Below, piece after piece: positions 4,362-12,539 of a DNA stretch of 12,671 nt (within the stretch, counting starts at the first letter, position 1; each line of letters starts with the position of its first letter). The notes below the pieces were generated by a model. That model was not told the DNA's origin, made no database searches, and saw only the letters and a list, made by a program, of their open reading frames with translations. Origin of the DNA: Promethearchaeota archaeon (GTDB lineage Archaea; Asgardarchaeota; Lokiarchaeia; Sigyniarchaeales; SOKP01). Location of the stretch: assembly GCA_019058015.1 (NCBI GenBank), contig JAHLWH010000043.1, forward strand, positions 1 through 12,671, in the 5' to 3' direction. The translations under genes were made by a program, and so were the position numbers.

Positions 4362-6830
4362 ATGAAATTTATTTTATCGTTAAATGGGAACTGGAAAATA
4401 AAAGCTGACCCTTATGATAAAGGAAAAAAATTAAATTTTTTCTCTCCTGAATTTGATAGTTCTTCTTGGCATGAAGTAAATATTCCATGTCATTGGGAAT
4501 TAGCAGTTCCACATTATTATAATGCAAATCCCGAAATTATATGGGCTCGTAAAGAATTTCTGTCGGAGGAGATAGGAGACCATACGAGATTAGAATCAAA
4601 ATTAATTTATCTTTACTTTAAAGGAGTTTTTTATTATGTGGATGTTTATCTTAATGGAAATCTTTTAGGAAGTCATGAGGGTTACTTCGAGCCCTTTAGC
4701 TTTTTAGTTAATTCCTATTTGAAATCTAAAAATATATTAATTTTAAGAGTAGTTTGTAGGAATGAAAAGGATTTAGGTAGTAAGAAACAGATTTTAGGAA
4801 CTTTTGGGCACTGGGATGCCTCAGATCCTAATTCTAATCCCGGAGGGATATGGAATGATATAATTATCGGAGAATCTAGCATAATTCATATTCATTCAGC
4901 AAGAAAAAAAACTCAACTAAAGTCAAACAATCTAGCATTCGAGTATGTTTATGTTTTGATTACAGCACTTAATGAAATCAAAACATTAATAAAAATCCAA
5001 TATATCCCAAAAAATTTTAAGGGGGAACTGATTTCAAAAGAATTTCCAGTACTTCTAAAACCTGGATTACATGAGTATTATTTTAACTTAGAGATAAATA
5101 ATCCTGTTTTATGGTGGACTCATGATTATGGACAACAGAATCTTTATGAATTAAAAATTCAATGTTATTCTAATGAAATTGAATTTAATAACGTTCTTTT
5201 AGATTCTTATAATTTAACTACCGGGATTAAAGAAATTCATATGGAGCGAAGTGGAAAATATGGAGGCAAATGGAAAATAACATTCAATAAACATAGTTTC
5301 TTCATGAAAGGCACAAACTATCCTCCTTGGCAAAGATTAGCCACAGCTACTAAAAATGATTTTTTAAAAGATTTAAAACTCTTTAAAAATGCAAATATGA
5401 ATTGTTTACGAGTTCATGCACATCTCTCTCGTCCAGAGTTTTATGAAGCATGCGATGAAGAAGGGCTTATTCTTTGGCAAGATTTGTGGTTACAATGGGT
5501 TTATAGTAAAAAAGTCTTTCTTGAAATTAAAAGACAAGCAGAAATTGCTATAAAAACACACCAATCACATCCATCTATTGCTATATGGTGCGCACATAAT
5601 GAACCATTTTACGCTCCTAATATGAAAATAGTAAAATATTCTTCGATTCTCTTTATTTTATCAATTATTTTTTCTTTTTGGTTAGGAATTTCATTTGTTA
5701 ATTTCTTAAACTCCACATTTTCTCTACCAATTTTCTCTGGATTAGTTAGTTTTATTCTTGGATTTAGCTTATTGATATTTATTTTATGGATAATGGGAAA
5801 ATATTTTGATCTCTATCCATTTGGATTATTTTTTAATTCTAATAGTGTAAAACTCGATCCGGAATTGTATCTAATAATAAAGGAAATTGAAAATGGGCAA
5901 AATATAGTCATACCGTACTCTGGTATTTGTGAATTACCATTTACAATTTTTCGCTCTCCTAAATTAAAGAAAAAAATATATGAATTTAAAAAATTTTATA
6001 CTGATTTTCATTATTATGCTGGTTGGTATAATGGTAATCATAAGAAAGATTATAGATATCATATTAAATGGTGGGGTCTTAATGGAAAATTAAGAGATAA
6101 AGCTCGTTTTGTAACAGAATATGGTGCACAAGCCTTCCCAATATTAGAGAATTTTAGAAAATTTTATCCTAATCCCGTATCATGGCCACCTCCTCAAGAT
6201 TGGTGGATTTTATTAGAGAAAAATCACTGTTTTCAACAAAAAGTCCAAAAAAAATGGATTAAAGCTGATCAATGTGAATCCTTAGAAGAATTTATTAGAA
6301 CAAGTCAAGAATGGCAAGCAGAATGTTTAAAAGCCACTACTGAAATGTTTCGTCAAATTAAATACAGACCCCTTGCAGGGCTTATAACATTTTTAGGTAT
6401 TGATTGTTTCCCTTCTATTACCTGGTCTATAATTGATTTTTATCGTACACCCAAAAAAGGGTATTATGTAATTAAGAATGCATTTGAATCGATTTATGCT
6501 ATGGTAGATTGGCCAAAAAAAGTATACAAACATGGTGAAATATTTCAATCTTCTATTTATGTATGCAATGATTATTGGGAGACAATAAATAATGTTAACC
6601 TTAAATGGAAATTATTGACACCAAAAAATACTGTAATCAAAGAAGGTAACCATTTATGTTCACTTGAACCTGATAGCGTTAAAGAAATTGCACAATTGAG
6701 CTTTAGAATTCCTAATGAAAAATTTATTATACTAAAATTGATTTGGAATGATCCGATTAAATCAAAAAATTTTCAAGAAAATTCATATCGATTTGATATC
6801 GGAATTTCTCGATGGGCAAAACATTTCTGA
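4362..6830 (+). CDS. Glycoside hydrolase family 2, beta-mannosidase-like, with internal predicted transmembrane hairpin
   Basis: 822 aa. SLNGNW start, FKGVFY..VYLNG..LGSHEGYF, GGIW, LWW..YG.QNLY, KGTNY, ANMNCLRVHAH, CDEEGLILWQD, acid/base motif HNEP (E414), nucleophile motif VTEYG (E586), WSIIDFYRTPK. Hydrophobic block at about residues 428-478. Confidence 0.9.
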   Translation: MKFILSLNGNWKIKADPYDKGKKLNFFSPEFDSSSWHEVNIPCHWELAVPHYYNANPEIIWARKEFLSEEIGDHTRLESKLIYLYFKGVFYYVDVYLNGNLLGSHEGYFEPFSFLVNSYLKSKNILILRVVCRNEKDLGSKKQILGTFGHWDASDPNSNPGGIWNDIIIGESSIIHIHSARKKTQLKSNNLAFEYVYVLITALNEIKTLIKIQYIPKNFKGELISKEFPVLLKPGLHEYYFNLEINNPVLWWTHDYGQQNLYELKIQCYSNEIEFNNVLLDSYNLTTGIKEIHMERSGKYGGKWKITFNKHSFFMKGTNYPPWQRLATATKNDFLKDLKLFKNANMNCLRVHAHLSRPEFYEACDEEGLILWQDLWLQWVYSKKVFLEIKRQAEIAIKTHQSHPSIAIWCAHNEPFYAPNMKIVKYSSILFILSIIFSFWLGISFVNFLNSTFSLPIFSGLVSFILGFSLLIFILWIMGKYFDLYPFGLFFNSNSVKLDPELYLIIKEIENGQNIVIPYSGICELPFTIFRSPKLKKKIYEFKKFYTDFHYYAGWYNGNHKKDYRYHIKWWGLNGKLRDKARFVTEYGAQAFPILENFRKFYPNPVSWPPPQDWWILLEKNHCFQQKVQKKWIKADQCESLEEFIRTSQEWQAECLKATTEMFRQIKYRPLAGLITFLGIDCFPSITWSIIDFYRTPKKGYYVIKNAFESIYAMVDWPKKVYKHGEIFQSSIYVCNDYWETINNVNLKWKLLTPKNTVIKEGNHLCSLEPDSVKEIAQLSFRIPNEKFIILKLIWNDPIKSKNFQENSYRFDIGISRWAKHF

Positions 6831-6955: not shown

Positions 6956-8248
6956 ATGAAAAATAATTTAGAATTTGATTCTTTAGACAAAACTTCAAAA
7001 AAGAAGACCAAGTTAAAAATTCGTAAATCTTGGATTATTGCTTTATGTTTTTTGGCTTTCGGTACAACTCTTTATTCAGAAATCGAAGGACAATGGTTTT
7101 CTTCTTTTGGACGTGTAATTGCAAATATGAGTTATTTCGGTGTTTCTACTATGGTTGCATTAGCTGGAATATTTGGAACGATTTTTTATTTAGTATGGGG
7201 AGCAATTTCTGATAATTTACGCACAAATCTTGGACGGCGGATTCCTATAATCTTGATTGGTATGGCATCAACGGCAGGGCTAATGATATTCTATATTTCA
7301 ACAACCTATTTTTTATTATTATTAGTTATTGGAGGATTTTTTTTAGCAATTACTTCGAATATGTTCCATGTTACAAATAAATCTTTAATTGGGGATTTAA
7401 TTCCAAAAGAAAAAAGAGGTAGAATTAATTCTATCTTGTTCATAGCTACAAATATGGGTTCCATGACAGTTTGGATACCTGCAATAATTCTTTTACTTGA
7501 AGGGACGGAAACTTATTCTAAAGAAATCCATTCCGTCTTTATTGGAGGAGGGGCTTTATTATTGGTAATTGTAGGGATTCTTGTAACTCTATTAGTGAAA
7601 GAACCTAAGGTAAATACACCTCCAAGTAACTGGCTTCATGATCTTAGGAAATTACTAAATCGTAAAGAAATGATGCAACATAAGGATTTTTTACGCTTAT
7701 TTGTTGCAATGTTATTTCTAATAATGAGTCAAAATGCTTTTACTCCATTCTTATTGATATTACTCCAAGAAATTTCGCTAAGTCTTACAGAAATTTTAAT
7801 ATTTTTGCCAATTATTGGAACTGCTATAGGATTAGGGATATTTCTTTTAGGAAAATACGTTGATACAATAGGGAGAAAAAAAGTTGCCTTAATTAGTCTG
7901 ATAATTTCTCCAATTGGTTGTTTTATTATAACATTTTTGGGATCCAATTACCAATTATTATTATTAGGCTTTGGGATAATGATGCCTTTTAATATTGGAT
8001 TATGGTTAGCAACAGATGCATGGACATTAGATTTACTTCCTGAAGAATCACGAGGAAGATTTTTGGGAATAATAAACATAGGAAATGCGATTGCAAAAGC
8101 ACCAGGTGTCCTTATTGCGGGTTATTTAGCAGATACTTTTGGTATTTTATGGGTATTTTTTATAACGGGGGTTATTTTATGGATAGGTATTCCATTTTTC
8201 TTAAGGGTGCCAGAAACAATCAAATTAAAAAATGATAAAATTGAGTAA
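6956..8248 (+). CDS. MFS transporter, glycoside/sugar symporter-like; paralogue of 328..1635
   Basis: 430 aa with about 12 hydrophobic segments. GAISDNLRTNLGRRIP, GKYVDTIGRKK, DLLPEESRG and LADTFG all mirror the first MFS. Confidence 0.93.
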   Translation: MKNNLEFDSLDKTSKKKTKLKIRKSWIIALCFLAFGTTLYSEIEGQWFSSFGRVIANMSYFGVSTMVALAGIFGTIFYLVWGAISDNLRTNLGRRIPIILIGMASTAGLMIFYISTTYFLLLLVIGGFFLAITSNMFHVTNKSLIGDLIPKEKRGRINSILFIATNMGSMTVWIPAIILLLEGTETYSKEIHSVFIGGGALLLVIVGILVTLLVKEPKVNTPPSNWLHDLRKLLNRKEMMQHKDFLRLFVAMLFLIMSQNAFTPFLLILLQEISLSLTEILIFLPIIGTAIGLGIFLLGKYVDTIGRKKVALISLIISPIGCFIITFLGSNYQLLLLGFGIMMPFNIGLWLATDAWTLDLLPEESRGRFLGIINIGNAIAKAPGVLIAGYLADTFGILWVFFITGVILWIGIPFFLRVPETIKLKNDKIE

Positions 8249-9735
8249 AAGTAAGTATAAAATTGTTTACATTGGAGCAGGGTCGTATCGTTTTGCAATT
8301 CCATGCACAATGAACATACTAGATTTCGCTAATGATTTTAATCCTATTGAGTTATGGTTAGTAGATATTGATGATTATTCACTATCATTGATGAGAGAAG
8401 TAGTTTGGCGTATGGTTCAACTCCATAAAAAAGAGATAGAGATTCATTCTACAGTTGATAGAAGAATAGCACTTCCTGCTGCAGATTATGTTTTAATTTC
8501 TATATCTGTAGGGATCCAAAAATCTGAATGGATTGATATTCATATTCCATTGAAGTTTGGAATACCCCAAAACACAGGAGATACAGTTGGCCCAGGAGGG
8601 ATATTTCGAGGTATTAGAACAATACCTGTGATCGTTGAAATTTTAAAAGATATTGAAGAATTATGTCCTAATGCATTAGTATTAAATTATACTAACCCAC
8701 AAGGCACTACAGTGCTCAGTACTTATCAAACAGCACCGAATGTTCAATCAGTAGGCTTATGTCATGAGTTATTTTATTTAGAGTCAAAAAAATTTGGAAA
8801 AGTTTTGAAGTATTGTAAAATAAATACCTCAACTAAAAAGAAATTTCAAATTCTATATGGTGGTCTAAATTTTTTCTTGGATAACTAAATTTGAATATGG
8901 TGGAGAAGATCTATATCCAATATTGCGAGAAACGGCAAACTACATGTATAAATCAGGAAAGTTTGGTAGACCATTTAATTTTTATCTTCTAAAACAGACG
9001 GGATATCTAACATATGTAGAGGATAGGCATGTGGCTGAATTTTTACCACAATATTATAATTATTTTAATCATTGGGATAAACCTTTTAATATTACTGATT
9101 TAAGAAGCGTGTATAGAGTTCAATTAGAAAGAAAATTAATGTACTCATTAATCAAAGCTCTAAGAACAAAAAGATTTAGTTGGATTATTAAATTATTTTT
9201 ACGCCCAACTGAAGGCATAGAAAAAGCACTATTAACGGCTAAAGATAAAGAGAGGAACATTTCAAGACATCATGTATGTAATGTATTGAATAATGGTACA
9301 ATCCCATCTTTACCAAATAATTGTGTAATTGAAATACCTTGTTATTTCAAAAATAAGGAGATTTATAAAGTAAAGATAGGCAATCTAGCTAGTCCAATTA
9401 GGGAATGGGTTAGTCTTCAGGCGAGGAATCAGCAATTAGTGGTAGATGCTGCATTATCTGGTAATCCTGATGATTTAATTAAAGCATTACTAGTTGACCC
9501 TATGTGTGATTTTATAGAAGATGAAGAAAAAATAGAAGCTTTAATGATGAACATGTTATATTATCAGAAAGCCTGGTTGCCCAATTTTTCTGAATCAATC
9601 CCGGATTACAGCGATTTAAAAAAGATCAAATACTATATTGAAAAAGGTGAATTATGTAAAAGAAACATTGCAAGAAAAGAAAAATATCACCCAGATAAGA
9701 GTCTTAAAGTTAAATCGTGGCCTTATATCAATTAA
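8232..9735 (+). pseudogene. Glycoside hydrolase family 4, frameshifted at about 8871 (ORF-track pieces 8232..8888 and 8923..9735 are one gene; real lesion or sequence error)
   Basis: The N-half has IGAGSYRF, GDTVGPGGIFRGIRTIP, NYTNP, GLCHEL, GGLN. The +1 frame from 8872 continues FSWITKFEYGGEDLYPILRE into the second ORF (DRHVAEF, NNGTIPSLP, DP, WLPNF). Restoring 2 nt gives about 501 aa. Confidence 0.88.
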
Positions 9736-9736
9736 T

Positions 9737-9961
9737 AATTTCTATGACCATCTAACAGGGAAATCAATTCATTATAAAATAAAACTTACAAAAAATCCAC
9801 ATGAATGTGAGGATTTCCCTCTAATTAGAAGATTTCTAGCTGCAATTCGAGGAGAGGAAAAACCATTAACAACTGCCCGGGAGTCTCTTCAAAGTCATCT
9901 AATGTCTTTTGCAGCAGATCGATCCCTCAAAAAAGAGAAGATTATACATATAAAGAATTAA
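9737..9961 (+). pseudogene. C-terminal remnant of a Gfo/Idh/MocA-family oxidoreductase
   Basis: FYDHLTGK...H..ED..LIRRFLAAIRGEEKPLTTARESLQSHLMSFAADRS resembles the recognisable C-terminal helices of this family (H.GGD..L...F..A......T....SL.SHL..FAA..S). There is no Rossmann domain and no credible start; the 9638 TTG start lies inside GH4. Confidence 0.75.
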
Positions 9962-9971
9962 ATTTGTTACT

Positions 9972-11042
9972 ATGTCTCCATTCAAAATATCTTCTAAAGT
10001 AAAAAAAAAAATAGGAAAAATTAATCGAAAAGACGACAACTTGAATTATTCTTTGCAACCTTTTGTTACAAAATGGTTAAGAGATCACCCCCCCAAATTG
10101 AGCTATAAATTAAAGCCACCAGAAATGAGTTTTGAAACATGGAAACAACAAGTTAAAAAATTAATCTTAAAAAAGATCCCAACTTTAGAACCCCTGCCTT
10201 TTAATAAACAAAAGTTTAAAATGGTTGGTGAAACAACATCAAATGGAATAAAATTTATCCAATTTTCTTTAATGACAATTCCAGGATTAAGAGTACCTGG
10301 AATAATGTGTATTCCTGAAAATATTGAACATAAAGTACCTGCTTGTATTTGCATACATGGACATGGGCAAAATATATATAATACTGTTGGAATGAAAAAA
10401 TCTAAGAATAAAGAATATTTTGGATATGAATTAGCAAAGTTAGGATTAATAACTCTATCTTTTGATTGGATTGGAAGTGGGGTTCGAGAATCTTTTAAGA
10501 ATAAATATTTATTTTTCCTCCAAGATGAAGGGCAAAGATCTAATTGGCTTCGGTTCATAGGATTAGATATGTTAGGACTCCGTATAACTGAAGTACAAAC
10601 ATTAATAAATTTCTTAGAAAATCATGACGATGTGGATCCTAACCGATTAGGAATAATAGGGCATTCAGGAGGGGGGACTCTTTCTTTATTTGCTACAGTT
10701 TTTGATGAGAGAATTAAAGTATGTGCTACTTCAGGATATTTAAGTACTTGGGATCATTCAATTCTAGCTATGTATCATTGTGGTTGTAATTATAGTGCAG
10801 ATTTAAGAAAATATCTTGAATTATATGATGTGTATGCATCTCTAGCTCCCCGCCCTTTAGCGATTACGATAGGGGAAAAAGATAAGATCTTCCCCTACAA
10901 AGGGACTAAAATCTCTATCCCGATAATCAAAGAAGCTTATCAGGAAACTAATTATACCGAGAATTTGCTAATTCATGTACAAAAAGAAGGTCATAGATTT
11001 AGTGGAGAAAAGATATATCCATTTATATTAAGCTATATATAA
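9972..11042 (+). CDS. Alpha/beta-fold hydrolase (dienelactone hydrolase/acetyl-xylan-esterase-like serine esterase)
   Basis: 356 aa. PACICIHGHG, D..G.G.R, VDPNRLGIIGHSGGG (Ser232 nucleophile elbow), HCGCNY, APRPL...GEKDKIFP (Asp), EGHRF (His). No signal peptide evident. Confidence 0.9.
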   Translation: MSPFKISSKVKKKIGKINRKDDNLNYSLQPFVTKWLRDHPPKLSYKLKPPEMSFETWKQQVKKLILKKIPTLEPLPFNKQKFKMVGETTSNGIKFIQFSLMTIPGLRVPGIMCIPENIEHKVPACICIHGHGQNIYNTVGMKKSKNKEYFGYELAKLGLITLSFDWIGSGVRESFKNKYLFFLQDEGQRSNWLRFIGLDMLGLRITEVQTLINFLENHDDVDPNRLGIIGHSGGGTLSLFATVFDERIKVCATSGYLSTWDHSILAMYHCGCNYSADLRKYLELYDVYASLAPRPLAITIGEKDKIFPYKGTKISIPIIKEAYQETNYTENLLIHVQKEGHRFSGEKIYPFILSYI

Positions 11043-11477: not shown

Positions 11478-12539
11478 ATGATAAAAATTTTATTACAAAA
11501 TTTCAACACAGCTTGGGCAATCCCTTGGTATACGGTTATGGTTATTATTAACGTCATGGGCCTGGCGTATTGTGCAGTTGTTTACAAACGATCCCTGATT
11601 CCAAGGGATGGAAAGGATTCAACATATCGGAATCGGATGCGAATTATGGGGGTAATCTTTACGTTAGTTTCTGCCTATCGAGCGATTGGTGTATGGTCTA
11701 TACCATATACTTTCCGAATACCGAACACGGTAGCGGAAGTTTCATTCGCTGGGTTAATTGCATATGCGATGTTACGATTCAATACTTATTTGCCTGCTAC
11801 CGACGACGCACGTGCTAATAAATTCAAGTCATTCATAACAAAGACTCCCTATATCCTAGTAGGATGTTTAGTTCTATCACAATTCATTGACACATGGGGG
11901 GTGATCACCCATTTTGTATTAAGGGGTGTATTCGTGGAGACATTATGGGGGATTGGGTTCCTGTCAGTACTCCCACTTGCTATTATACAACTGCGCCGTG
12001 TTTTCTCGATAAAAGATAAGGAAGCAGTAGAACGGTTACGAATACTGAGGTATTCTGCGATAATAATTGCAGCTTGGTGCGTGATTTATTGTATGTACAG
12101 GTGGGTCTTTACTTTACCGGGAATGTGGGGTAGGGCGTTATATATATTAGAAACGGGGTTACCTGAACTTGAAACTGGCATACAAGCGATAATTAATGCC
12201 CTTGGAATTAGAACGCGAACATCGCTAGAGTACCGCGATTGGGGTTTTGGTTTTCTAATATGGCACTCTGCCTACTTTAGCATCTTAACTTGGATTTCAA
12301 TATTCTTAATGAAAGCGCCACGACCCCGGGAAATTTCCGGGAAACGTAACGCTAAGCCAACGCTAATAACGCTAGCACTAACAGCGATAGCGCTAATAAC
12401 GCTAATAACGATAATTGGCTTACCAGCTGACATTGATGAGAAAATTATTCTTTTCTTTTTGGGAGGCTTATTTCTCGTACCAATTGCCTACATTTTCGTT
12501 TTGGAAATCAAGGGTGTCAAGTTAAAGACTATAGAATAA
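11478..12539 (+). CDS. Polytopic integral membrane protein of unknown function
   Basis: 353 aa ORF with about 8-9 hydrophobic segments and polar intramembrane residues (AEVSF, VETLW, WHSAYFS). GC is clearly higher than in neighbours. Confidence 0.85.
   Translation: MIKILLQNFNTAWAIPWYTVMVIINVMGLAYCAVVYKRSLIPRDGKDSTYRNRMRIMGVIFTLVSAYRAIGVWSIPYTFRIPNTVAEVSFAGLIAYAMLRFNTYLPATDDARANKFKSFITKTPYILVGCLVLSQFIDTWGVITHFVLRGVFVETLWGIGFLSVLPLAIIQLRRVFSIKDKEAVERLRILRYSAIIIAAWCVIYCMYRWVFTLPGMWGRALYILETGLPELETGIQAIINALGIRTRTSLEYRDWGFGFLIWHSAYFSILTWISIFLMKAPRPREISGKRNAKPTLITLALTAIALITLITIIGLPADIDEKIILFFLGGLFLVPIAYIFVLEIKGVKLKTIE
12360..12416 (+). repeat. Degenerate 9-bp tandem repeat (ACGCTAATA) within CDS
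   Basis: ACGCTAATA ACGCTAGCA ctaacagcgata GCGCTAATA ACGCTAATA ACGATAATT, encoding TLITLALTAIALITLITII. Confidence 0.75.

Follow-up and report, generated by a model that had tools for sequence, protein, structure and literature searches.

The stretch of DNA analysed here, referred to as the window, comprises 12,671 nucleotides of contig JAHLWH010000043.1 from a Promethearchaeota archaeon. The gene of interest (Table 1) encodes a protein of 822 aa, P0001, with the five-domain architecture of the beta-mannosidases, and is followed by a gene for a major facilitator superfamily (MFS) permease. The Pfam domains Glyco_hydro_2_N (29.9 bits, cut-off 28), Glyco_hydro_2 (25.4 bits, cut-off 23), Glyco_hydro_2_C and Mannosidase_ig (25.3 bits, cut-off 23.4) were all found in P0001 above their cut-offs. 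The domain hits, together with a whole-chain Foldseek TM score of 0.72, place an N-terminal sugar-binding jelly roll and an Ig-like beta-sandwich ahead of the barrel. The top PDB sequence match was the beta-mannosidase 5n6u (E = 4e-39) and the best Foldseek matches of the predicted model were 2vl4 and 5n6u (TM 0.72 for both); the best 10 PDB sequence matches, as well as the best Foldseek matches, were all beta-mannosidases or an exo-beta-mannanase. No NCBIfam model, and hence no equivalog that would give a specific substrate name, exceeded its cut-off for the GH2, MFS or GH4 proteins.

Table 1. Features of the GH2 locus, with positions in the window.
Feature	Position	Strand	Basis
GH2 gene, five-domain beta-mannosidase-like architecture, 822 aa (P0001)	4362..6830	+	Pfam, PDB sequence search, Foldseek
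N413-E414, predicted acid/base pair, C-terminal end of barrel strand beta4 (406-410)	5598..5603	+	Alignment, AF2 strand
Predicted membrane helix 1, residues 421-449 (hydrophobic core about 426-449)	5622..5708	+	AF2, KD19 2.36, crude deltaG
Short uncharged turn, N450-L455 (NSTFSL)	5709..5726	+	Translation; non-helical in AF2
Predicted membrane helix 2, residues 456-482	5727..5807	+	AF2, KD19 2.59, crude deltaG
Conserved aromatic juxtamembrane motif KYFDLYPFGLFFNSNSVKLD, residues 481-500, leading back into the barrel (alpha4 = 493-510)	5802..5861	+	Identity among relatives
E586, predicted catalytic nucleophile, end of strand 584-586 (FVTE)	6117..6119	+	Alignment, AF2 strand
MFS permease (MFS_1/MFS_2), probable operon partner in this lineage	6956..8248	+	Pfam; 126 nt downstream of GH2

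The solved GH2 beta-mannosidases, namely DtMan of Dictyoglomus thermophilum (5n6u), BtMan2A of Bacteroides thetaiotaomicron (2je8/2vl4) and the Xanthomonas exo-beta-mannanase (6byc), have the five-domain architecture in common and share with P0001 the (beta/alpha)8 barrel, the NE pair at beta4, the nucleophile glutamate at beta7 and the Mannosidase_ig domain. They match P0001 with phmmer E values of 4e-39 to 5e-22 and Foldseek TM scores of 0.70-0.72, although at an identity of just 16-19% over the fold. The motif WCAHNEP starts at residue 409 of P0001; its N413-E414 pair (E414 codon at nt 5601-5603) aligns with the NE pair in two beta-mannosidases, 5n6u and 2vqu, and E586 aligns with the S-E-F-G nucleophile motif of the same two proteins. 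Both glutamates were unchanged in 91 of 91 aligned sequences. Judged from its sequence, P0001 is a GH2 (clan GH-A) enzyme of the beta-mannosidase structural type with both catalytic glutamates present, and the family assignment of the first-pass annotation was confirmed.

The hydrophobic insertion and its predicted structure

The first-pass annotation had described two hydrophobic stretches after E414, joined by a polar loop and flanked by lysines, in the active-site-face loop of an enzyme that then returns to barrel-like sequence and has no N-terminal signal peptide. All of these features were recovered. Kyte-Doolittle means over 19 residues (KD19) reached maxima of 2.36 (residues 428-446) and 2.59 (457-475), and every window in the rest of P0001 lay below 1.6, the next highest being 1.49 at 673-691. 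A crude additive free energy of insertion (deltaG), computed with approximate scale values, was negative in just 10 windows of the protein, starting at 427-431 and 457-461, with a minimum of +5.35 elsewhere. D, E, K and R are all missing from the 54 residues 426-479; no other run of this kind in P0001 exceeds 13 residues. The flanks carry K421 and K424 before the hairpin and K481 after it, and the turn carries no charge, a pattern that fits the positive-inside tendency; in the relatives P0008, P0006 and P0122 the turn includes K/R. Barrel sequence is resumed after the hairpin with NSVKLDPEL, IVIPYSG, DFHYYAGWY and TEYG.

In the AlphaFold2 (AF2) model of P0001 (mean pLDDT 89.8, pTM 0.91), the two stretches were predicted as the helices listed in Table 1, with block pLDDT values of 78-85, along with the beta4 and nucleophile strands and helix alpha4; pLDDT fell below 50 at residues 486-489. 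The alignment and the model both place the insertion between beta4 and alpha4, in one of the catalytic-face loops, the hairpin beginning 7 residues past the acid/base E414. As modelled, the segment is a helical hairpin, with two membrane-grade segments of at least 19 residues predicted to be helical and separated by a short turn.

P0001 has no signal peptide and leaves no room for one: the conserved LNGxWK strand begins no more than about 12 residues after Met1 in all 8 full-length clade members whose N-termini were compared, and the KD19 scan of P0001 gave no N-terminal hydrophobic window. As the two halves of the barrel have to lie on the same side of the membrane, the lack of a signal peptide would make the whole enzyme cytoplasmic and tie the catalytic-face loop to the inner leaflet; membrane insertion and this orientation are what we infer from sequence and model. 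Some relatives carry K/R in the turn between the helices (KR..R in P0008, RR in P0122) or charges within the spans (P0122, P0127), which argues against a uniform bilayer-spanning hairpin with its turn outside.

The insertion is missing from the solved structures of GH2 enzymes, which are soluble in the case of the beta-mannosidases, unlike the predicted membrane-anchored P0001. Three alignments of P0001 to solved GH2 structures break at the insertion, the stretch between two aligned blocks measures about 66 residues in 5n6u (447 to 513) and about 155 in P0001 (413 to 568), and the inserted segment alone gave no PDB match at E ≤ 10. A search of the ESM Atlas with residues 415-500 returned no usable match. 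Other membrane-associated GH2 proteins are built differently: in the terminus-anchored ones (P0025-P0038) an N-terminal hydrophobic signal or anchor lies outside the catalytic module, whereas in P0001 the spans interrupt the barrel, and the long proteins P0213, P0230, P0231 and P0259 (1799-2069 aa) have many spans in a separate C-terminal domain. The first-pass annotation knew of no described GH2 with this architecture. In the openly accessible literature searched, no description of a GH2 enzyme with an internal membrane hairpin was found, and the terms 'transmembrane' and 'membrane' each occurred 0 times in the main text of a GH2 architecture survey (PMC5145203).

Two sources of the hairpin were considered and dropped. 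An origin from the neighbouring MFS permease or another membrane protein had as its best blastp match 25% identity over 72 aa (E = 0.002, in a three-protein database with composition correction off), which was judged compositional. An intein or mobile element was rejected, the inserts being of 64-159 aa, purely hydrophobic and without a Pfam match in the whole-protein scan.

Distribution and conservation of the insertion

Hydrophobic segments directly after the NE motif were carried by 18 of 266 GH2 relatives. In the 91-sequence alignment, the loop was 71-85 aa long with KD19 maxima of 2.25-2.64 in 10 sequences, and 9-42 aa long with KD19 ≤ 1.02 in the other 81. In trees built with the insertion columns taken out, all 17 insertion-bearing sequences included lay on one side of a branch (UFBoot 99, SH-aLRT 98; SH-aLRT 98 under a mixture model), and every named member of this clade is an Asgard archaeon (Loki-, Promethe- or Helarchaeota). 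The sequences thus describe an insertion that is inherited clade-wide within a single Asgard clade, in two-span and roughly four-span versions. In the source databases, the proteins of the clade are named 'GH2 protein', 'beta-mannosidase' or 'hypothetical'.

Counted with a simple heuristic (KD15), 12 of the 17 have two spans, 4 have four and 1 has three; the number is thus even in 16 of 17, as a one-sided topology needs. A second AF2 model, of a protein of the roughly four-span type (L025), had a pLDDT of 91.2 overall and 45-76 across the insertion, with helices at 403-430, 438-448, 452-475, 479-491 and 493-507; its helix count is ambiguous and decides neither for nor against an even number.

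The hairpin diverges faster than the barrel, with identities of 32% versus 70-78% in P0008 and 5% versus 39-40% in P0125, and hydrophobicity is maintained in both, which fits lipid-facing anchors. Conservation is highest not in the spans but in an aromatic interfacial sequence, K/R-x-[FYW]-D/N-L-Y-P-[FW]-G-L-F: the motif at residues 481-500 is 70-95% identical in relatives whose hairpin is just 32-68% identical. Two more loops, those following beta5 and beta6, have basic and aromatic insertions that are peculiar to the clade, RSPKLKKKIYEFKK and HKKDYRYHIKWW.

The nearest insertion-free relatives (28-35% identity) were found in a subfamily of cytoplasmic GH2 proteins, about 700-745 aa in length, to which JGI gives the label 'beta-mannosidase' (P0012-P0024 and similar). 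These proteins have the barrel motifs in common with P0001, likewise lack a signal peptide and already possess a loop of 33-42 aa after NEP that ends in W-N-K-x-x-L-D. Their loop is not membrane-grade (KD19 ≤ 1.02), and they fall outside the insertion clade on the tree. Acidimicrobiia MAGs are among the named members of this subfamily, none of which, judging by the source names, has been characterised.

Gene neighbourhood and the role of the insertion

In L001, L002 and L030-L033, the GH2 gene is followed at a distance of 67-126 nt by a permease gene of the same MFS subfamily. With the window, 7 loci have the MFS gene directly downstream, only at identities of at least 77%, so that coupling to this permease, one of the options raised in the first-pass annotation, cannot explain the insertion in general. 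Among 22 loci that carry the insertion, 12 lack the adjacent MFS gene in their flanks (three of which end early at a contig end), including all those that are 52-54% and roughly 35% identical; the insertion therefore predates the association with the permease and outlives it. The complete operon, seen in L033 and L002, comprises GH2, the MFS permease, GH4, a xylose-isomerase-like TIM barrel protein, a Gfo/Idh/MocA protein and an esterase; its downstream part has decayed in the present genome, where the GH4 gene carries a frameshift and two other genes have been lost by deletion. No RNA data set was among the 24 runs listed, an absence that does not bear on expression. GH4 enzymes are NAD+/Mn2+-dependent and cytoplasmic. 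A GT4 glycosyltransferase gene adjoins GH2 in one f19 locus. No conserved lipid or glycosylation genes were found near GH2 in the flanks of the loci compared.

The explanation favoured here, which was given about an even chance of being right, is that P0001 is a cytoplasmic, active GH2 enzyme tethered by its internal hairpin, so that the first hydrolytic step stays at the membrane, close to the permease. In that explanation, P0001 is a predicted catalytically intact exo-beta-glycosidase. The hairpin would leave the beta4-alpha4 loop shortly past E414, cross the bilayer twice with its 6-residue turn outside or dip into it as a monotopic wedge, and rejoin the barrel via the conserved aromatic motif, fixing the enzyme to the cytoplasmic membrane with its catalytic-face loop at the inner leaflet. 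The GH2 gene stands in this lineage at the head of a sugar-use operon, and the tether would hold the first hydrolysis where the permease releases imported glycosides. The substrate would then probably be a soluble, imported glycoside.

A different role for the same anchor, in line with the lipid-linked substrates suggested in the first-pass annotation, was considered possible, though improbable: the hairpin may hold the catalytic face on the cytoplasmic leaflet for a membrane-bound substrate. Glycolipid head groups and polyprenol-linked oligosaccharides assembled on the cytoplasmic side would be the candidates, with the aromatic motif, at residues 481-492, as the entry for the lipid-borne glycan. 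The insertion has been passed on through an Asgard clade that reaches back to members of only about 35% identity, with no conserved transporter alongside, and this speaks for a role intrinsic to the enzyme. An insertion that is older and longer-lasting than the pairing with the permease is at least as compatible with a membrane-bound substrate. The proximity of the insertion to the acid/base residue, the conservation of the aromatic stretch above that of the spans, the clade-specific basic and aromatic loops after beta5 and beta6, and the GT4 neighbour also count in favour of this role. It is opposed by the typical import-and-catabolism operon, permease included, that the gene heads in the lineage of the window, by the lack of conserved lipid or glycosylation genes nearby and by the insertion-free sister groups, which resemble ordinary cytoplasmic GH2 enzymes. 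In its most novel form, that of an Asgard-specific GH2 clade with a hairpin or four-helix bundle beside the acid/base residue, acting as an interfacial enzyme that trims lipid-anchored glycans on the cytoplasmic leaflet, the proposal was considered rather doubtful; archaeal glycolipid head groups might then serve as substrates, as might polyprenol-linked oligosaccharide precursors whose core sugar is beta-linked. A functional analogy is offered by GBA2 (GH116), the non-lysosomal glucosylceramidase, a glycosidase that acts on a lipid-anchored sugar at the cytosolic membrane face. GBA2 is, however, of an unrelated family and fold and associates with the membrane peripherally, without a hairpin inside its catalytic domain.

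The helices might instead lie outside the membrane, as a soluble or oligomer-buried coiled hairpin at a dimer or tetramer interface or as an active-site lid. GH2 enzymes are commonly oligomers, helix 2 contains small-residue patterns such as SGxxSxxxGxS that could let helices pack against each other, and AF2 is blind to the difference between a membrane and a protein environment. This arrangement was nevertheless considered very unlikely in view of the charge-free run and the KD19 and crude deltaG values of the two stretches, the only ones of their kind in P0001, the free variation of the sequence while its hydrophobicity holds, the predicted helix lengths of 27-29 residues, which correspond to a bilayer, and the expansion to about four spans in relatives. 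Equally membrane-bound but facing outward, an enzyme with both catalytic halves exported and the hairpin as an anchor with its turn in the cytoplasm would suit the positive turn charges of P0008, P0122 and P0006, and surface glycosidases are plausible for a sediment heterotroph. Such an export was judged about equally unlikely, since a folded N-terminal part of 420 aa would need to cross the membrane without a signal peptide, the turn of P0001 is uncharged between lysine-bearing flanks, and the operon partners are cytoplasmic-type enzymes and an importer. Lastly, the chance that a misassembly, chimeric contig or miscalled frame made the hydrophobic stretch, for which the metagenome-assembled origin and low G+C content (31%) of the genome could be cited, AT-rich DNA tending toward F/I/L/K-rich peptides, is negligible and the idea already refuted as far as sequence data allow, given a single open frame, single contigs of 12076, 4154 and 10279 nt (three runs, two other studies) that span positions 5300-6200 whole with five differing letters and no gaps, and homologues of 35-99% identity from many sources with the insertion at the same position.

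Implications for GH2 enzymes and Asgard biology

Glycoside hydrolases are among the best-catalogued enzymes, and those bound to membranes are normally anchored at a terminus. In P0001, the predicted anchor lies within the TIM barrel, which it breaks up one loop away from a catalytic residue, and domain-based annotation overlooks the hydrophobic insertion entirely. With insertions of two or about four spans across several Asgard lineages, the clade would provide a natural example of a soluble fold gaining membrane topology by loop insertion. As to function, the enzyme would act either where a permease opens into the cell or, at the inner leaflet, on sugars carried by lipids, and to our knowledge neither is an established mode for GH2. 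For Asgard biology, P0001 and its relatives represent a concrete, expressible candidate for membrane-associated glycan metabolism.

Catalytic fold and inserted hairpin

The window (12671 nt, G+C 31%) encodes the GH2 protein P0001, for which matches above cut-off were found to each of the Pfam families Glyco_hydro_2_N, Glyco_hydro_2, Glyco_hydro_2_C and Mannosidase_ig. The nearest solved structures by sequence search were GH2 beta-mannosidases (5n6u, E = 4e-39; BtMan2A entries, E around 1e-26), and an AlphaFold2 (AF2) model (mean pLDDT 89.8, pTM 0.91), obtained with a 91-sequence alignment as input, superposed on solved beta-mannosidases with TM scores of 0.70–0.72. The alignment held 91 of the 121 available sequences, 30 having been dropped by hand (mostly short sequences, length outliers and near-duplicates). 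Alignments to solved relatives identified E414, at nucleotides 5601–5603 as the first-pass annotation had read it, as the acid/base glutamate of the N-E motif and E586 as the nucleophile; both were invariant (91/91), and in the model they close strands 406–410 and 584–586, respectively. Sequence and fold tests both place P0001 in GH2 and in its beta-mannosidase structural subgroup, with beta-mannosidase specificity putative.

Alignments to the solved structures stop at residues 413–416 and restart at 542–568. In this gap, the Kyte-Doolittle 19-residue mean (KD19) peaked at 2.36 (428–446) and 2.59 (457–475), and elsewhere in P0001 it never reached the classical threshold of 1.6 (next-highest window, 1.49). 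DeltaG summed residue by residue, a crude additive measure, was negative only for windows starting at 427–431 and 457–461 (minimum elsewhere, +5.35), and residues 426–479 form a run of 54 without D, E, K or R, the longest elsewhere being 13. The two hydrophobic stretches reported right after the acid/base glutamate were thus recovered, and the AF2 model gives both as helices, the first starting only seven residues (PFYAPNM) beyond E414. Their layout and the position of the beta4 strand place the insertion in the beta4–alpha4 loop, at the barrel's catalytic face. As a lone query against solved structures, the inserted segment gave no match at E<=10. An N-S-T sequon in the inter-helix turn (N450, window 5709–5717) is also present in P0003, is not kept in P0004–P0009 and is probably due to chance.

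Features of the window and of the P0001 insertion
Feature	Coordinates	Strand	Remarks
GH2 gene (P0001)	4362-6830	+	ORF, 822 aa
MFS permease	6956-8248	+	126 nt 3' of GH2
GH4 gene, two ORFs	8232-8888 and 8923-9735		frame change near 8872-8925
Gfo/Idh/MocA remnant, 73 aa	9740-9958		last 73 residues, 88% identical
Abhydrolase_7 esterase	9972-11042		downstream of GH2
Helix 1	residues 421-449		AF2 model, block pLDDT 78-85
Turn NSTFSL			six residues between helices 1 and 2, AF2 model
Helix 2	residues 456-482		AF2 model, block pLDDT 78-85
Poorly defined stretch after helix 2	residues 486-489		AF2 pLDDT <50
Helix past the poorly defined stretch	residues 493-510		AF2 model

Misassembly, named beforehand as telling against the hairpin, was not seen: a single frame is open through the inserted stretch, Logan contigs from three runs in two studies besides the probable source carry window 5300–6200 unbroken (five letters differ, no gaps) and homologues of many sources keep the insertion, so that an artefact deserves next to no credence.

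Solved GH2 structures (5n6u, BtMan2A and the others matched) and terminally anchored or fused GH2 relatives, unlike P0001, have no hydrophobic helices within the barrel. No published GH2 with internal membrane helices was found in the part of the literature covered, subscription journals and CAZy aside, which agrees with the earlier remark that no described GH2 of this architecture is known; the terms 'transmembrane' and 'membrane' each occur zero times in the main text of a GH2 domain-architecture survey (PMC5145203). Four relatives of 1799–2069 aa (P0213, P0230, P0231 and P0259), each with an N-terminal hydrophobic segment and approximately 8–10 further hydrophobic spans past residue 1000, represent a separate GH2-plus-polytopic-domain architecture.

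Distribution and conservation of the insertion

The spacing from E414 to L498 was 71–85 residues with KD19 of 2.25–2.64 in 10 of the 91 aligned sequences, whereas the other 81 had 9–42 residues there, with KD19 at most 1.02. A scan that took in all 121 sequences, including those dropped from the alignment, found hydrophobic segments directly past the NE motif in 18 of 266 GH2 relatives; other hydrophobic segments lay at the N-terminus, where they resemble signals or anchors, or far toward the C-terminus. Searching 1.84 billion representatives exhaustively and without a profile added remoter carriers (36–43% identity); P0122, P0123, P0125, P0127 and P0135 have two spans, and P0124 and P0126 have inserts of 126–159 aa.

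In an unrooted tree of 68 sequences, many of deviant composition, from which the insertion columns were taken out, all 17 carriers fell on one side of a branch (LG+G4, UFBoot 99/SH-aLRT 98; SH-aLRT 98 both with LG+C20 PMSF and in an initial quick tree), so that one gain suffices. The named carriers are Lokiarchaeota, Promethearchaeota and Helarchaeota MAGs; all carriers come from one phylum, which makes this an invention of one lineage rather than a recurrent one. In a 301-genome phylum sample the insertion type was confirmed in eight genomes (G000, G153, G294 with two copies, G237, G100, G032, G021 and G084), with unclassifiable truncated copies in G051 and G078 left outside this count. An Asgard GH2 family of 684–702 aa is without it. 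In the window's own family it occurs in only 2 of 69 sampled genomes, including G000, the remaining matches being to a canonical paralogue of approximately 870–890 aa; the window's genome also has a canonical paralogue (846 aa, KD19 maximum 1.19). The 60%-identical carrier P0008 (L029, G294:C208) is labelled 'Candidatus Deferrimicrobium sp.', a bacterial MAG, at NCBI; because G294, which belongs to the same Asgard class as the window, contains the same protein, the label probably reflects a mis-binned 5.7-kb contig. The second G294 copy (L023, G294:C27, 6065–8128; 37% identical) has one in-frame TGA; the gene may be broken or the codon recoded.

The spans are far less conserved than the barrel, with identities of 32% vs 70–78% for P0008, 33% vs 65% for P0009, 22% vs 45–54% for P0122 and 5% vs 39–40% for P0125, and the twenty residues after them, KYFDLYPFGLFFNSNSVKLD, are 70–95% identical in nearer relatives. 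Lipid-facing anchors keep hydrophobicity while their sequence is free, and a specific protein-protein interface is expected to keep a face; hydrophobic yet variable spans thus follow the pattern of anchors. A helical subdomain, soluble or buried in an oligomer, is therefore improbable. By a crude home-made heuristic (KD15, Kyte-Doolittle 15-residue means), all 12 short inserts have two spans and the five long inserts have 4, 4, 4, 4 and 3. An even number is required if both barrel halves are to lie on one membrane side; an AF2 model built for one long-insert protein has low confidence across the insert and does not fix the number.

Orientation toward the membrane

The claimed lack of an N-terminal signal peptide was borne out, since the LNGxWK strand starts within approximately 12 residues of Met1 in all eight full-length clade members with N-termini compared and the P0001 ORF cannot be extended upstream. 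The gene call for one orthologue, P0007 (L032, 5896–8469), adds a hydrophobic N-terminal segment of 32–35 aa (854–857 aa in total); because other orthologues begin at the MKF... methionine, this long start is probably a miscall in AT-rich DNA and not a signal peptide. Given what is established about Sec-type insertion, export of the 420-aa N-terminal and 340-aa C-terminal parts around a hairpin is implausible. From these two points the catalytic domains of P0001 should be cytoplasmic, and its charges agree (K421, K424 and K481 flanking, none in the turn), making an outward-facing enzyme quite improbable. Lysine or arginine in the turns of P0008, P0006 and P0122, and charges within the hydrophobic stretch of P0122 and P0127, raise the possibility that, for some of the clade at least, the element enters the membrane as a monotopic wedge instead of crossing it twice. 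Placement of the active site against the leaflet is putative, being based on the short linker and the loop position.

Gene context and proposed role

Intact operons in L002, L032 and L033 comprise GH2, MFS, GH4, a xylose-isomerase-like TIM gene, Gfo/Idh/MocA and the esterase. In the window, residues 1–212 of the intact 498-aa GH4 orthologue (L033) match one frame and 212–495 another, the mark of a pseudogene or else of a sequencing error in a homopolymer. Set beside L032 and L033, window 9735–9972 is without the TIM gene and roughly 380 N-terminal residues of Gfo/Idh/MocA. The 3' half of the operon is decaying in this genome, with GH2 and MFS intact. A second GH4, a NagB-like gene and a second MFS lie 5' of GH2, and a 353-aa ORF (11478–12539) with many hydrophobic stretches had no Pfam or NCBIfam match.

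Among 91 tabulated loci (22 with the insertion, 66 without and three unclassifiable), a same-subfamily MFS (scores 230–706) lies 67–126 nt 3' in seven, the window, L001, L002 and L030–L033, all at least 77% identical, L030 being in essence the same sequence as the window. Several loci are near-duplicates of each other, which makes the counts non-independent. At the three f19 loci, another MFS_1 follows approximately 1 kb 3', beyond an HtrA-like protease. No MFS was seen in the flanks of the other 12 insertion-bearing loci, L034–L036 (52–54%), L023, L024, L037, L039, L088, L090 and L103 (~35%), L029 and L008, of which L029, L008 and L039 end early at a contig edge; their neighbours are unrelated among themselves. 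The insertion thus extends across the clade, and the permease link is lineage-specific. The long-insert loci L025–L028 (G100, G032, G021 and G051) share a conserved string of NUDIX, GH2, HtrA-like Trypsin_2/PDZ protease and MFS_1, a setting very unlike the sugar operon in the window.

Sequence and model together support an active GH2 that would be anchored to the membrane from within its catalytic domain and face the cytoplasm. The main rival, a substrate itself bound to the membrane, is favored by clade-wide retention without a conserved transporter, by the conserved aromatic interfacial motif and by basic and aromatic extra loops behind beta5 and beta6, and is considered possible but less likely. 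For this organism, the favored reading, taken from the operon and given about even chances, is that P0001 would split imported glycosides at the membrane beside the permease.
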